64,000 nt of DNA from an uncultured bacterium (GTDB taxonomy: Bacteria > Krumholzibacteriota > Krumholzibacteriia > Krumholzibacteriales > Krumholzibacteriaceae). Below, piece by piece: positions 33,401 through 42,400 of the stretch. The position numbers are program-made. The stretch is from the NCBI GenBank assembly GCA_963813815.1, contig CAWFAD010000006.1:37719-101718 (forward strand). Direction: 5' to 3'. Positions within the stretch are counted from its first letter, which is position 1, and every line of letters begins with the position of its first letter.

Positions 33401-36400
33401 GCCGATCATGTCCATGAACCAGACCTCGTTCGGATCCGAAATCGAGAACGATTCGCCGCTGCTGTAGTAACCGTGCGCCGCGACGAGGCCCGTCATGACC
33501 TCGATCGCCTCGCGCGCGGTCTTCGCGCGCTGGAGCGCGAGGAACATGAGACTCCCGTAGTCGACGACGCCGGTGCTGTCGCGGAGCTCCGGGCGCCCGC
33601 CCCACGTCGTCTCGCCGACCGAAACCTGATGCTCGTTCATGAGCCCGACGTACCCGTACGTGTGGGGAACGTGCGGAATCCGGCCGAGAAACTTGCCCGT
33701 GTCCCACTCGTAGATGTCGAGCATCGTGCCCGGCGCGAAGTCGCGGGCCGGAGCGTGATAGAGCTCGCCGTAGAGCTCGTGCGAATCGGCGGAGTAGCTG
33801 ATCATGGTCGAGCCGTCCGCCGAGGCGCCCCTCGTGACGAGATAGTTCGTGCAGGCGCTCGCGGCGGAGGCGGCGAAGAGCCGCCGCCGTCGAAACAACC
33901 AGTGCGATCCGGGTCGTGCGTTTCATGAGCTGCGGTACCTCCCTTGGTTCGGTCAACGGTTCCGTTTCGGGTGAAAGACGCCGTAGGTCCGCTCCGCGGC
34001 GCCGAGAGCGGCGAGCGCGAGGCGGACGTGCGGCACGCCGGCGCGGGGCGCGAGCATGCCGCGGATGTTGTCGAAATCGCTTTTGCGGACGAATCCGGTC
34101 GCGAGCGCGGCGACGGCGTAGAGCGCCGTGCCGCCCGCCAGGACGAGCGGGATCCGGAGCGCGGCGTGCCAGCCCGCGGAGAGCCACCCGAGCGCGACGT
34201 ACACGAGCGAGAGGAGCAGCGGATGGATCCACGCCCGGAGCTCGATGCGGCTTCCCGCGACCCGTCCCATCATGACGAGGAGCGTCGCGGCGAGCGCGAC
34301 GAAGGTCGCGAGCGCCGCGGCCGCGGCGCCGTTGATGCCGTAGCGGGGGATGAGGATCGCGTTGAGCGCGATGTTGAAGGCGGCGGCGCCGAGGTAGGCG
34401 GCCGCCGAGAGCCCTCCCCGCCCGTGCGCCACGAGCGCGGCCCATCCGATGCGGCAGAACAGATCGATGAAGGTGATCGCGGCGACGATCTGCACGATGC
34501 TCGTCGAGGGGCCGAAGCGCGGCACGAGGATGCCGAAGAAATCCTTCACGAGCACGAAGATGACGAACGTCGCCGGCATGAGCACCATGAACCCGAAACG
34601 CGACGCGTTCCGGACGAGGTTGCCGAAGATGTTCCGGTCGGGATCGTCCTTGGCGGCCGTGAGCGTCGGCACGAGGGCGAAGCCGATCGTCGAGGCGACG
34701 ATGTCGAGTATGGTGACGATCTGCGCGCCCATCGAGTAGTAGCCGAGCTGCTCGGCCGGCAGGTAGAACTTGATCATGATGCGGTCGATCGAGTTGATGA
34801 GGTTCCAGCCGAGCCCCGCTATGAAAAAGAGAAATCCGAACCGCGTCGTTTCCTTGATGCCTCTCCAGAGCGGACCGACCGCCTCGCCGAACGAGGGAAG
34901 CACCCGCCGGTGAAACACGCGCGCGTAGAGCGCCGCTCCCGCGATCTCGGACGCGAGCAGGGCCCCGACGATGAGCGTGACGTTCCGCTGCCAGAGGACC
35001 GCGCCGACCGGAAGCGCGATGTTGAGGAGGCCGTGAACGAACGCGATGGATGCGCCGAGCTTTCCCCGCTGGACGGAGAAGTAGACCGACGCGAAAAACG
35101 TGTTGACGGCGAGAAACGGTATGATGAGCGCGCTCAGGCGGAGAGGATTCACCGCCGCGCTCTCATGGGCCACGTGCTCGGCGATCCACGGCGAGAAGAC
35201 GAGCATCGCGGCCGCCCAGAGGACGCTCAACGCGAGGGTGCAGAATGCCGTCGAGCGGTAGATCATGCGCGTGAGATCCGGACGCCCGTCCTGGAGGTAC
35301 GCCGGCATGAGCTTCAGCACGGAGGTGTTGAAGCCGACGTTCGAGAGCATGCCGCCGATGAGCAGGTACGGGTTCGGGATGTTGAGAATGCCGTAGAGCG
35401 CCGGTCCGAGGAGCCTCCCGAGGAGGATGCCCTTGATCGGCTTCAGGACGAGTATCGCGATGCGGGACGCGGAATAGAAGAAGCTGTCGGATAGAACCTT
35501 GGCGGTCGAGAGATCGATGCGTCGCGTTTCGCGTGGATGGGACATTATTTTTTGAATTTGCTGATGAATTCCTCGACCTCTGGGATTCCGCCCTGAAAGA
35601 TGAGATATCCGTTGTGCGGCTCGCGCTCGGTGATCTCGCCGGCGATCGGCGTGAGCATGATCTTTCGGACTTCCTCGCGGTCGTGCGTTTGCCCGAGCGC
35701 CCAGCCGAGCTTCATGTATCCGACCTCGGGCAGCAGGTTCGCGCCGGGAATGACGCCGAGGTCCATCATGTCGCGCCCCGTGTCGTACACGTACATCTGC
35801 ACGTAGCCCCAGAGCGTCTGCACCGTCATGTAGACGTGAATGCCCCGGTCGAACGCCTTCTTGAGGCTCGGGTAGAGCGGCTTGTTGACGTGGCCGAGCC
35901 CCGTGCCCGCGATGATGATCCCCTGGTAGCCGTTGTCGATGAGGGAGTCGATGATGTCGGGCTTCATGTTCGGGTAGTAGTACACGATCGCCACGCGGTC
36001 GTCGAACGCCGTGTTGATTTTCACGTTTCGATCGGTCCGCCGCCGCTTGATAGTCCTGCCGCAGATGGATGAAGCGCTCGCGGTCCACCATGGCGAGCGG
36101 AATGTCGCCGATCGTGCGGAAGGTCGATCGATAGGATGAATGCATCTTTCGCACGCGCGTGCCGCGGTGGAGCAGTCCGTAGTCGTCGCTCGTCGGGCCG
36201 AACATGCAGACCATGACCTCGGCGATGTCGCCGTGCGCCGCCGAGCTCGTCGCGTTGATGAGATTGAGGGCCGCGTCGCTCGAGGGGCGATCGCTCGACC
36301 GCTGCGAACCGACCATGATGATCGGAACCGGCGGAGTCCTGCACCATGAAGGAGAGGATCGCCGCCGTGTGGTGCATCGTGTCGGTGCCGTGGCCGATGA

Positions 36401-39400: not shown

Positions 39401-42400
39401 CGCAGGAGCCCGGCGGCGTAGTGGTGCGCGAGCTTCGAGAGCCCCGCGTAGCCGTTTTTGCCGTAGAAGACGTTCTCCCGCTTCTTGAGGAGAAATTGAT
39501 GAAAATGCATGCCGGTGCCGGGCTCGTTGTGGAGCGGCTTCGGCATGAAGGTCGCGGTCTTTCCGTGCCGGTGCGCCGTCATGCGCGCGAAGTGCTTCAC
39601 CATCATCGAGATGTCGCCCATCCGCGTGAGGGGGCCGAAGTCGACCTCGATCTCGACCTGCCCGTGGCCGCCGACCTCGTGGTGGTGGTAGAGCGTCTCG
39701 ACCCCCGCCTCGTGCAGCAGCGTGACCGTCTTGTCCCGGATGCCGACGAGGACGTCCTCGGGAGGCAGCCCGTGATAGCCCGAGAAGGTCCACAGCCCGA
39801 AGGTGTTCTCGCGGAGGCCCTCCGCCGGAACGATCTCGTACATGCACGTCTTGTTGGAGTTCTTGACCCGAACCTCCTCGAAGACGTAGTACTCGAACTC
39901 CGGTCCCCACATCGAGACGTCCGCGTAGCCGGTTTTGCGCAGATATCGCTCCGCGGACCGAGCGACCGAGCGCGGATCGCGCGAGAACGGCTGCTTCGAG
40001 TCGGCCTCGACGATGCGGCAGATGAAGGATATGGTGGGCTCGTCGCGGAACGGGTCGAAGTATCCGGTCTCGAGCTCCGGAACGAGCGCGAGATCCCCCT
40101 TCTCGACGGACGACATGCCGGCGAAGTTCGAGCCGTCGAACCCGACGCCGTGCGTGAAGAGGCGATCGCCCACGCGCGAGGGGGGCACCGTGAGGTGGTG
40201 CCAGCGGCCGAAGAGGTCCGTGAACTTGAGGTCGATCTGCTTTATGCCGCGGCTTCGGATGGCCGCGCGCACTTTGGCTACGGACGAAAAAATGGCCAAC
40301 CTCCTTGTTCGGCGGGTCCGTCGAGGGGATTCGCCGCTTGGCCGGGTCGATTAGGCGTTCGGCCATTCAATATATTCGATGAATGGGGTGCATTCAAGGA
40401 AAAACGCCCCCCGGGCGAGCCGCGCAATTGCCATAATAAATAGCATTTGACAAGGCGTTCCGGCGGTGCTACTCAAAGGGATATTTTGAATCAACGGGAG
40501 GTACGCAGTGGTCGAGCAAAAGGTCATGAATCGCTGGCTCGCCGTGGTCGGAGCGCTCCTCGTCCAGCTCTCTCTCGGCGCCATCTACGCGTGGAGCGTT
40601 TTCACGACGCTCCTGCAGGATCCCGAGGGCGCGTTCCGCTTCAGCGCCACCCAGACGCAAATCATCTTTTCGGTCGGGCTCGGCATGTTCGCCGCGCTCA
40701 TGCCCTTCGCGGGCAGGCTGCAGGCGAAGATCGGTCCGCGCCGGGTCACGTTCATCGGAGGCCTCGTCCTCGGGGCGGGCTACATCCTCGCCGGTCTCTT
40801 CGGACGCGGGTTCGCCACGCAGCTCGTTTTCATCGGAGTCCTCGGCGGCGCCGGCATCGGGCTCGCGTACGTGAATCCGATCGCGGTCGGCATGCGGTGG
40901 TTCCCCGACAAGAAGGGGCTCATCACCGGGATCGCTGTGGCGGGGTTCGGTTTCGGCGCGCTTCTCTGGGTGCAGCTCGCGGGAGCGTGGGGGCACCTGC
41001 TCGATACGATGGGCGTGCTCCCCGTGTTCCTCGCGTACGGAATAGCGTTCGCGGTGCTCGTCTCGATCGGTTCGCTCTTCATGGTCTATCCGCCCGAGGG
41101 CTGGCGCCCGGCGGGCTGGAATCCCGAGGCCAAGGCGAAAAGCGCTTCGGCGTCCCCCGCGGTAGAGATGCTCCCGGGCCAGATGCTGAGGACCGGCCGC
41201 TACCACGTCATTTGGCTCGCCTACGCCTTCTGCGCGCTCGCCGGCCTCATGGTGATCGGCATCGCGAAGCTCTACGGTCGCGACGCGCTCGCGAGCTCGG
41301 GGCTCGAAAAGTACGCCGATCCCAAGGTCGCCGCCGCGGCCGCCTCGACCGCGTACGCGATATTCTTCGCGCTGGCGAACGGCTTCGGGCGCATCGGGTG
41401 GGGGATGATCGCCGACGGCATCGGCTGGAAACGCTCGATCGTGACGATGGCGGTCATACAGGGCGTCGCCATGGCGGCGCTCTACTACCTCGGATCGAGC
41501 TTCGCCGCGCTCTGCGTCTTCTTCGCGGTCGTCGGCGCCAACTTCGGAGGCACGCTCGCGCTCTTCCCGCTCGCGACCGCGGGCAGCTTCGGCTCGAAGA
41601 ACGTCGGACAGAACTACGGCTGGATGTTCACCGCGTACGGCGTCGGCGGCATCGTGGGGCCGATCGTCGCCGGCATTTTCAAAGACATGGGGCAGGGGAA
41701 GGGTGTGGCGGCGTGGATGCCTCCCTTCATGATCGCCGCGGCGCTCTGCGTCATCGCGGCCCTCATGATCGCGTCGCTCAAGCCGCCGAAAAAGGCCTGA
41801 GGATCTGCGCCGCTCGCATCGGCGCCCGCGGAGGGTTCGGCCATGGAAGAGCTGATTCGAAAATTGCTCGTCGAGCTCGGCGAGGATCCGAATCGCGAGG
41901 GGCTCCAGCGCACCCCCGAGCGGGTCAAGGAGTCCCTCGAGTTCCTCACGAGCGGCTATCGCGAGGACCCCGAAGAGATCTTCCGGGGAGCGGTGTTCGA
42001 GGAGAAATACGACGAGATGGTCATCGTGAAGAACATCAGCCTCTACAGCCTCTGCGAGCACCATCTGCTGCCGTTTTTCGGGGAATGCCACGTCGCGTAT
42101 ATCCCCAAGGGGCGCATCATCGGCATTTCGAAGATCCCCCGGATCGCGCAGACGTTCGCGCGGCGCCTTCAGGTGCAGGAGCGCCTCACGAATCAGATCG
42201 CGCAGTCGCTCATGGATCATCTCCAGCCCTACGGCGTCGCCGTGACGATCGAGGCGGTGCATCTCTGCATGGCGATGCGCGGCGTCCGCAAACGCGACGC
42301 TATCATCATCACGAGCGCCATGCTCGGGGCGTTTCGCACCGATCCGAAGACGCGCATGGAGTACCTCGAGCTCATCAAGCGGGGCGACTCGCGCGAGGGG

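Follow-up and report, generated by a model that had tools for sequence, protein, structure and literature searches.

Organization of the glnA-gatE-gatD locus

The window (the whole stretch of 64,000 nucleotides that we analysed, from an uncultured member of the Krumholzibacteriaceae) carries an operon in which a glutamine synthetase gene is followed by genes for both subunits of the GatDE amidotransferase. The genes are as the initial annotation described them, the only offset being that its end coordinate, 40282, falls 17 nt inside glnA. The features are listed below in the direction of transcription; the promoter and the hairpin are consensus matches only.

40369..40397, minus strand: sigma-70-like promoter match upstream of glnA, TTGAAT-17-TATATT, 9/12 positions
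38884..40299, minus strand: glnA paralogue, first gene of the operon, type I glutamine synthetase, 471 aa; TIGR00653 485.3 bits (cut-off 429.15), Pfam Gln-synt_N and Gln-synt_C
36951..38861, minus strand: gatE, kinase/transamidase subunit, 636 aa, intact, with cradle domain, inserted domain and C-terminal tail
35545..36944, minus strand: gatD as a whole, in three frames, with two 1-nt insertions
36333..36944, minus strand: gatD segment 1, frame A, codons 1-204, GatD_N and the first half of the asparaginase domain, with GTGGTIAS and HGTDTM; TIGR02153 184 bits over model positions 2-164, Pfam GatD_N and Asparaginase 2-102
36332, minus strand: first extra base, G on the minus strand, a frameshift; a run of C in congeners G058 and G071 against TCCGCCGG in the window
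36051..36331, minus strand: gatD segment 2, frame B, the remaining asparaginase N domain including SQRSSDRPSSDA and RKMH; Pfam Asparaginase 104-184/193
36050, minus strand: second extra base, T on the minus strand, a frameshift; not in G058 or G071
35545..36049, minus strand: gatD segment 3, frame C, with Asparaginase_C; stop codon TAA, 35547..35545; TIGR02153 173.3 bits over model positions 258-403, Pfam Asparaginase_C 113 bits
33953..35545, minus strand: polysaccharide-flippase-like gene (Pfam Polysacc_synt), its ATG overlapping the gatD stop (TAATG)
32245..32271, minus strand: strong terminator-like hairpin 3' of a C69 peptidase gene, 11 G-C pairs and then a T run

The promoter scan returned two sites, against 1.0 +/- 0.9 in shuffled sequences, and the hairpin is a possible end of the transcription unit. 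The genome has two glutamine synthetase genes, the other being at G000:C16:226826-227920 (424.5 bits). The order glnA-gatE-gatD is kept in the four related loci L036-L039, and in L037, L038 and L039 a flippase-like gene also follows gatD. In other bacterial lineages gatD lies directly after gatE in 74 of 80 loci, the same adjacency as in archaea, with glnA upstream in 3/80 and asnA beside gatD in 1/80; asnA also adjoins gatD in six genomes of family f5. Glutamine and asparagine are both reported as amide donors for GatD (PMC2330236, in excerpt), and because glnA and asnA make these donors, such neighbors fit ordinary GatDE chemistry.

Frame breaks in gatD

When gatD is aligned with the genes of two congeners, there are exactly two 1-nt insertions, the G at 36332 and the T at 36050, and removing both restores an open frame of 465 aa. 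Full-length open gatD genes of at least 467 aa are present in seven congeners (G058, G061, G062, G063, G066, G068 and G071), as had been noted at the outset. At 36050, one base is omitted by all three contigs of run X3, which come from relatives and not from the same strain; no contig reaches across 36332.

Two frameshifts inside 1.4 kb could mean that this strain's gatD is genuinely a pseudogene, formed very recently, with GatDE switched off and GatCAB doing the work. The remaining genes in common with the syntenic contig L039 (12.5 kb) match over their full length, and several congeners do not have gatD, both of which would suit a pseudogene. Against it, the essential gene secY, at another place in the same assembly, runs over three frames and has at least two frame breaks, FTCD and other genes of the genome are also split, and the window itself contains at least five further frameshifts or split genes. 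The site at 36332 is a scrambled C homopolymer, typical of consensus error, and gatE is intact. In addition, gatD is under purifying selection (dN/dS 0.076-0.131), the ratio on the window's lineage being no higher than between the two congeners. That lineage has no surplus of amino-acid changes: the window's gatD is 93.3% identical to that of G071, whereas G058 and G071 are 90.3% identical to each other. Because secY is split too and gatD has no relaxed constraint, we consider it highly probable that both frameshifts are assembly errors, in agreement with the initial annotation, and a pseudogene quite improbable.

Membership in the GatDE family

In profile searches GatE scored 508.1 bits on NF003107 (cut-off 456) and 452.4 bits on TIGR00134 (cut-off 319.55). 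For GatD, the proteins of congeners reach 508-511 bits (cut-off 324). Both subunits have the domain order of the archaeal enzymes from Pyrococcus abyssi (1ZQ1) and Methanothermobacter thermautotrophicus (2D6F) and align with them from end to end: GatE residues 13-632 with 1ZQ1_C (341.6 bits) and 14-631 with 2D6F_C (319.4 bits), and the GatD of congener G058 with 1ZQ1_A (401.3 bits) and 2D6F_A (399.6 bits).

The catalytic residues are those of the archaeal enzymes. GatE H27, E170 and E197 align to His15, Glu157 and Glu184 of M. thermautotrophicus, which are essential there (PMC2330236, in excerpt), and this His/Glu/Glu set is conserved in 85% or more of the 31 bacterial sequences and likewise of the 38 archaeal-type ones; 73 alignment columns are conserved in both sets. 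GatD combines GatD_N with a type I asparaginase fold having the Thr and Thr-Asp-Lys active site (Pfam GatD_N, Asparaginase, Asparaginase_C), and it retains GTGGTIAS, HGTDTM and RKMH (residues 107, 185 and 265 when the frame is read through). The inserted domain that distinguishes GatE from GatB is present: the 277-position Pfam GatB_N model is spread over residues 22-460, the intervening stretch aligns to 1ZQ1_C and 2D6F_C, and PF02938 is precomputed for some homologues.

The C-terminal tail also aligns with the archaeal structures, with one difference. The archaeal tail motif GXXAXGX is not found in the window's GatE, where the same columns read PKLVRHV, and it is replaced in 31/31 bacterial rows while being present in most archaeal ones. 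Matches to GatB_Yqey in relatives are weak (E 0.003-0.006). The lysine-rich tail motif of GatB is described in a review as missing from archaeal GatE.

Bacterial GatDE forms a well-supported clade (SH-aLRT 100) apart from the rows bearing archaeal names, in a tree whose base is unresolved. Its sequences come from metagenome-assembled genomes labelled Ignavibacteria, Planctomycetota, Aminicenantes and others, and the homologues of GatE that are 57-87% identical to it carry, as first reported, names from Krumholzibacteriota, Aegiribacteria and Bacteroidales. GatE identity to the archaeal set is 32-39%, and GatD identity across phyla is 71-83%. The window genes are true GatD and GatE family members and part of a large bacterial branch. 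Bacterial GatDE is already visible in database annotation, and the window adds one more member.

Bacterial GatCAB (e.g. that of Staphylococcus aureus, 3IP4) uses the same three-step chemistry, and the cradle domain is common to GatB and GatE, the window's GatE scoring 90.9 bits on the gatB model. In GatCAB, however, the glutaminase is the amidase GatA with GatC, whereas GatDE uses the asparaginase-like GatD and its GatE has the inserted domain.

Gln-tRNA routes in this genome and across the phylum

Checks at the level of the genome, run on an assembly that is 90.8% complete, bore out the initial description. GlnRS was not found in this assembly (best match 61.1 bits, cut-off 425.8). GatCAB is encoded, with GatB at 539 bits, GatA at 579.3 bits and GatC at 58 bits, each above its cut-off. 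There are two GluRS, one AsnRS (444.6 bits) and a single AspRS of bacterial type. Both tRNA-Gln (UUG and CUG) have the U1-A72 pair, whereas archaeal GatDE reads A1-U72 (PMC2330236, in excerpt); it is plausible that bacterial GatDE re-learnt its tRNA identity, as the initial annotation proposed.

At roughly even odds (about 0.5), we favor the reading that this GatDE, a member of the bacterial branch, is a genuine Glu-tRNA(Gln) amidotransferase that operates alongside GatCAB, with GlnA as the probable source of its amide donor and the gatD frameshifts as assembly errors. GatD would act as an asparaginase-type glutaminase that frees ammonia from glutamine or asparagine, and GatE would phosphorylate the acidic amino-acid side chain on the tRNA and then amidate it. 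The likeliest substrate is Glu-tRNA(Gln), charged by one of the two GluRS and converted to Gln-tRNA(Gln) on a bacterial U1-A72 tRNA. The second glutamine synthetase, which adjoins gatE, probably supplies the donor, and GatDE would not be the only route, since the genome's GatCAB is complete. On the substrate side, the presence of two GluRS and the failure to find GlnRS favor this reading. We found no activity data for any bacterial GatDE in the literature; this, the U1-A72 pair of the tRNA-Gln and the co-occurrence with GlnRS described below count against it.

The initial annotation went further and proposed an archaeon-like division of labor, in which GatDE makes Gln-tRNA and GatCAB serves asparagine. 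Locally this has some appeal. AsnA and AsnB, like GlnRS, were not found in the genome (90.8% complete), and GatCAB may therefore be needed for asparagine there; GatCAB, AsnRS and a single bacterial-type AspRS resemble the set of bacteria that make asparagine on tRNA (PMC4206432, in excerpt). Within the genus, though, GatB is above the cut-off in 14/16 genomes (the window's own counted) while gatD is missing or weak by our thresholds in 6/16, including G064 (90% complete) and G069 (88%), and congeners with an AsnB-family gene still keep GatCAB. We regard this division of labor as unlikely in this organism, and as a general proposal it is not supported, as GlnRS is found in most GatD-bearing genomes of the phylum.

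GatD is above the cut-off in 143/208 genomes of the phylum, consistent with the earlier statement that it is kept across the phylum (126/207 for GatD_N). For co-occurrence, GatD was counted in 153 of 204 genomes, and GlnRS is present in 123/153 of these against 16/51 of the others; in a second lineage the figures are 18/19 and 24/62. Since the genomes counted are related, these counts are not independent of one another. Of the 123 GatD-bearing genomes that have GlnRS, 61 lack GatB. In the 30 that do not have GlnRS, GatB was missed in only seven, all incomplete (59-89% complete), and these are the seven genomes of the phylum with GatDE and neither GatB nor GlnRS. GatDE is the sole Gln-tRNA route in no genome of the phylum with a completeness of 90% or more, nor in any of the 19 GatD-bearing genomes of the second lineage or the five near-complete genomes from other phyla. 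GlnRS occurs in 123/153 and 18/19 GatD-bearing genomes, and none with 90% completeness or more depends on GatDE alone, so the enzyme does not act like a replacement for a missing GlnRS. It associates with GlnRS, and the absence of GatCAB is confined almost entirely to genomes with GlnRS. This co-occurrence pattern is what is new here.

According to the textbook view, a cell with GlnRS, AsnRS and AsnB should need no amidotransferase. In the phylum AsnRS is present in 182/208 genomes and AsnB-family genes in 151/208, and of the 69 genomes with GlnRS but no GatB, 61 keep GatDE. Such genomes invite the reading that bacterial GatDE has a changed or widened job and does not stand in for translation as a Glu-tRNA(Gln) amidotransferase. 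One possible task is to clear Glu-tRNA(Gln) that a still non-discriminating GluRS produces in cells with GlnRS; others are to provide an asparagine-fed supply of Gln-tRNA when glutamine is scarce, or to act on another substrate (such as Asp-tRNA(Asn) or a different acyl-tRNA). The positive association with GlnRS in two lineages and the tail motif replaced throughout the bacterial rows speak for a changed job, as does the 71-83% identity of GatD between phyla, which suggests a strongly selected function. However, the catalytic core and domain order are unaltered, the inserted domain, which according to the review excerpt would clash with ND-AspRS (PMC2330236), aligns throughout, and the glnA and asnA neighbors suit the ordinary chemistry. 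The counts behind the association share ancestry, and whether the single GluRS in such genomes is discriminating is not readable from sequence here. On balance we think a changed job somewhat unlikely.

A broader version, which we put forward tentatively, is that bacterial GatDE is an old, separate branch with its own job beside a complete Gln-tRNA route, enriched with GlnRS and persisting after the loss of GatCAB. Its remade tail may read bacterial tRNA differently, and the enzyme might be a safeguard against Glu-tRNA(Gln) from a GluRS that never became discriminating, an asparagine-driven supply of Gln-tRNA under nitrogen stress, or an enzyme for a new substrate.

GatDE has served as an archaeal signature and in the argument about Gln-tRNA synthesis in LUCA and in the two prokaryotic domains (PMC2330236, PMC2811023 and PMC9499178, in excerpt), and reviews up to 2022, in the parts available, still call it archaeal only, as the initial annotation held. 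In archaea it is the sole route and GlnRS is absent, in contrast to its coexistence here with GatCAB and/or GlnRS. A large, constrained bacterial clade of this kind breaks the archaea-only picture and raises the question of why cells with both direct synthetases retain a tRNA-dependent amidotransferase. Should the branch prove as deep as the tree's unresolved base permits, it would also matter for the proposal that both amidotransferases were present in LUCA and that GatCAB alone was retained by bacteria.

A parallel is found in Bdellovibrio, Deinococcus and Thermus, where GatCAB is retained although GlnRS and AsnRS are both encoded, and where it is tied to tRNA-dependent asparagine synthesis (PMC4206432, in excerpt). 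As in 61 genomes of the phylum, an amidotransferase is found there beside both direct synthetases; in the phylum, by contrast, the enzyme kept is GatDE, and AsnB-family genes are mostly present.

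The glnA-gatE-gatD operon and the break in gatD

The initial annotation had described genes for GatDE, the two-subunit Glu-tRNA(Gln) amidotransferase known as archaeal, next to a glutamine synthetase gene, and this observation was borne out. The genes are found on the minus strand in the order glnA, gatE, gatD and a flippase-like gene, and the gap between the gatE stop and the gatD start is 6 nt.

Features of the operon in the window
40397-40369, minus strand: promoter-like match upstream of glnA (consensus match only)
40299..38884, minus strand: glnA, 471 aa; TIGR00653, 485.3 bits
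38861..36951, minus strand: gatE, 636 aa; NF003107, 508.1 bits (cut-off 456)
36944..35545, minus strand: gatD, spread over three frames in Pfam and NCBIfam searches
directly after gatD, minus strand: polysaccharide-flippase-like gene, its ATG overlapping the gatD stop as TAATG
32271-32245, minus strand: strong terminator-like hairpin after the next gene, for a C69 peptidase (consensus match only)

This glnA is the second glutamine synthetase gene of the genome, and a higher-scoring one is located on contig C16. Elsewhere, at 2948-11441 on the plus strand, the window holds a V/A-type ATPase operon with subunits C/AC39, I, c, E, F, A, B and D.

In a DNA alignment with two congeners that have an intact gene (G058 and G071), the window gatD contains exactly two single-base insertions. 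The first is a G at 36332, at a site that is a C homopolymer in both congeners and reads TCCGCCGG in the window; the second is a T at 36050. Without both insertions the gene is an open frame of 465 aa. The window GatD and its G071 counterpart share 93.3% identity. For the window gene, dN/dS is 0.131 in the comparison with G058 and 0.076 in that with G071 (0.118 between these two congeners), and a full-length open gatD is present in seven congeners. The base at 36050 is absent from all three contigs of sequencing run X3, which come from relatives rather than the same strain, and 36332 was spanned by no contig among the Logan contigs of relatives in four runs. A Pfam scan of 133 candidate frames found other split genes in the window.

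Other split genes in the window
29560-30879, minus strand: acyl-CoA dehydrogenase gene, split between frames, shift near 30480
55514-57291, plus strand: ABC transporter gene, split between frames, shift near 56430-56600
59777-61883, plus strand: Y-family polymerase gene, split between frames
60751-64000, plus strand: dnaE2, broken into three frames

The last two are part of a lexA, Y-family polymerase and dnaE2 cassette at 58863-64000. As a genome-wide check for indels we used 60 kb from two other contigs, in which the essential secY falls into three frames (positions 1-77, 78-166 and 206-285 of the SecY model; C16:303080-304448, locus L144:3080-4448), a formiminotransferase-cyclodeaminase gene is split over two frames (L146:16074-18100) and several other genes are partial. 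The two split genes indicate indel errors throughout the assembly. Given the split genes in the window, the split secY, the lack of relaxed constraint on gatD and the seven intact congener genes, assembly error is the likely cause of the break, and we regard a real pseudogene, with both insertions present in the organism, as distinctly improbable. ARAGORN also called odd or over-long tRNAs in this genome, for Ile (96 nt, C7:191993-192088), Arg (93 nt, C9:49998-50090) and Cys (85 nt, C13:13414-13498) and one with its anticodon undetermined (C5:21683-21773); these could be mistaken predictions or additional indel artefacts.

Family membership and the bacterial clade

Based on sequence comparison, we consider the assignment to the GatDE family firm. 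Residues 13-632 of the window GatE align with P. abyssi GatE (1ZQ1_C, 341.6 bits) and residues 14-631 with M. thermautotrophicus GatE (2D6F_C, 319.4 bits), and the G058 GatD gives alignments of 401.3 bits to 1ZQ1_A and 399.6 bits to 2D6F_A. According to PMC2330236, mutation of GatE His15, Glu157 or Glu184 abolishes kinase and transamidase activity; their counterparts in the alignment are H27, E170 and E197 of the window GatE, and these residues are among 73 columns whose conservation reaches at least 85% in each of the two sets compared, 31 rows of bacterial and 38 of archaeal-type GatE. GatD retains the motifs GTGGTIAS, HGTDTM, SQRSSDRPSSDA and RKMH. The tail of GatE is different: most archaeal rows have the motif GXXAXGX, as in ERGERAFG, whereas in 31/31 bacterial rows another segment takes its place, PKLVRHV in the window.

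Searching 1.84 billion cluster representatives for GatE gave 3275 matches at E <=0.001 and 647 at E <=1e-30, and identities among the best 150 fall into two bands, 42-58% and 32-39%. The window is inside a 43-row clade with local support of 99 in a FastTree tree of 121 rows, and the 43 bacterial-type rows are one clade with SH-aLRT of 100 in a quick IQ-TREE run (LG+G4, 89 rows, with 8 GatB sequences as outgroup). The base of the latter tree is a polytomy that joins the bacterial clade to a clade of 32 rows and to three small groups, so rooting with these GatB rows fails to name a donor or a direction of transfer. Four of the 20 clusters we looked up had organism names (Heimdallarchaeota, Odinarchaeota, Thermoprotei and Acidilobaceae/Desulfurococcaceae), and all four are archaeal and outside the bacterial-type clade; eight clusters of the bacterial clade were looked up and came without an organism name.

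With an alignment of 12 bacterial-clade members as query, at least 602 stretches matched in species-representative genomes. The best 80 of these loci all have bacterial titles, covering Ignavibacteria/Melioribacteraceae/Kapaibacterium, Bacteroidota, Chlorobiota, Aminicenantes, Phycisphaerae/Planctomycetota, Cloacimonetes, Neomarinimicrobiota, Fermentibacteria/Aegiribacteria, Calditrichota, Myxococcota, Terriglobales and Krumholzibacteria, with some MAG labels that look doubtful, such as Hyphomicrobiales. gatE is followed by gatD in 74 of these 80. Across the bacterial phyla in the same loci (L054-L133), GatD shares 71-83% identity with the G058 protein; for GatE, identity over the first 500 residues is 50-67%, and its tail is divergent. 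The GatD identity would reflect either unusually strong constraint or recent spread among bacteria.

The window is one more member of this bacterial GatDE clade, and the interest lies in the clade itself and in its never standing alone, rather than in the single window. GatDE is said to occur "exclusively in archaea" (PMC2811023) and is called "an archaeal signature protein" (PMC2330236). Annotation pipelines already name bacterial genes as GatDE subunits, and the literature we searched, partly by title and start of abstract and with subscription journals outside its coverage, contained no publication on a bacterial GatDE.

One genome, G027, has a natural GatE-GatD fusion, a single 1245-codon frame (L034:5220-8954, plus strand) with the domains GatB_N, GatB_Yqey, GatD_N, Asparaginase and Asparaginase_C. 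A fusion in family f7 of the phylum Krumholzibacteriota was rejected because gatE and gatD occupy different frames in locus L031; the "open frames" of about 1100 aa there are chance frames in G+C-rich DNA, and the true fusion is found only in G027.

GatDE in the company of GatCAB and GlnRS

The genome of the window, which is 90.8% complete, carries complete gatCAB, two GluRS, AsnRS and one bacterial-type AspRS; at this completeness, GlnRS and AsnA were not found in it and no AsnB was over the cut-off. Its two tRNA-Gln and one tRNA-Asn all have U1-A72, and the first base of tRNA-Glu and tRNA-Asp is G. One of the two GluRS genes is directly upstream of tRNA-Gln(CUG) and tRNA-Glu(CUC) (C10:60577-62359).

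Genomes of the phylum with each gene over curated cut-offs
GatD: 143/208
GatB: 121/208
GlnRS: 138/208
AsnRS: 182/208
AsnB-family: 151/208
AsnA: 24/208

Combined occurrence in 204 genomes of the phylum (own E-value thresholds, split and truncated copies also counted; four ambiguous GatD rows, G011, G020, G161 and G199, left out)
GatDE+ GatCAB+ GlnRS+: 62 genomes
GatDE+ GatCAB+ GlnRS-: 23 genomes (type of the window)
GatDE+ GatCAB- GlnRS+: 61 genomes
GatDE+ GatCAB- GlnRS-: 7 genomes
GatDE- GatCAB+ GlnRS+: 8 genomes
GatDE- GatCAB+ GlnRS-: 28 genomes
GatDE- GatCAB- GlnRS+: 8 genomes
GatDE- GatCAB- GlnRS-: 7 genomes

The archaeon-like division of labour first proposed, with GatDE serving Gln and GatCAB free for Asn, is compatible with the inventory of the window's genome, but the phylum follows a different pattern, with GlnRS in 123 of the 153 genomes that have GatDE, compared to 16 of the 51 that do not. 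GatB is missing from 61 of those 123 and was missed in 7 of the 30 GatD-bearing genomes without GlnRS. These seven, in which GatDE would stand alone, are all incomplete (59-89%), and six of them belong to genera or families with GlnRS in other members. From the combined table, GatDE goes with GlnRS and is never the sole route to Gln-tRNA in any of the 204 genomes that is at least 90% complete. Five near-complete GatE-carrying genomes from other phyla have GatB only (two), GlnRS only (two) or both (one), and none has neither. In a second sample, 81 genomes from the class of G210 filtered at 90% completeness, GatD was over the cut-off in 19 (the sub-threshold G271 and G280 being counted as GatD-absent), of which 18 have GlnRS and 13 GatB, with at least one of the two in every genome; GlnRS is found in 24 of the 62 genomes without GatD. 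Because the genomes are related, these counts are descriptive and carry no statistical test.

Gene neighbours and predicted function

glnA precedes gatE in all four loci examined from families f1 and f3, and in 3 of the best 80 (of at least 602) loci from other lineages. In family f5 the neighbour's place beside gatD is taken by asnA, the aspartate-ammonia ligase gene. By coordinates, six genomes (G008, G012, G013, G017, G018 and G019; locus L033:6167-7378) have asnA at a distance of about 0.6-3 kb from gatD, and it is beside gatD in 1 of the same 80 other loci. Gln and Asn are the amide donors reported for archaeal GatDE in PMC2330236. Since glutamine synthetase makes Gln and AsnA makes Asn, these neighbours fit ordinary amidotransferase chemistry.

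We read the window GatDE as a predicted working Glu-tRNA(Gln) amidotransferase beside GatCAB, at roughly even odds (probability about 0.5). The phyletic pattern and the altered GatE tail leave real room for a changed role of the bacterial enzyme, which we hold to be a rather unlikely alternative.

Several other explanations were set aside. An archaeal-type GluRS as partner of GatDE was over the cut-off in 0/5 genomes, where the best matches were GlnRS genes, and the number of GluRS copies was uninformative on whether the enzyme is non-discriminating (one in G149, one in G022, two in G016, none found in G086). AsnRS and AsnB-family genes are too common in the phylum for GatDE to be explained in general as a substitute for Asn synthesis. 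No tRNA-Gln is near gatED in any of 92 loci, which rules out such linkage as a general feature; the one tRNA near gatED in these loci is a tRNA-Glu (CUC) in L130. In three of the four f7 loci, a Rex-like redox repressor gene (Put_DNA-bind_N and CoA_binding) is located divergently beside gatE (L032:4475-5224, L041:10912-11676 and L042:4059-4808).
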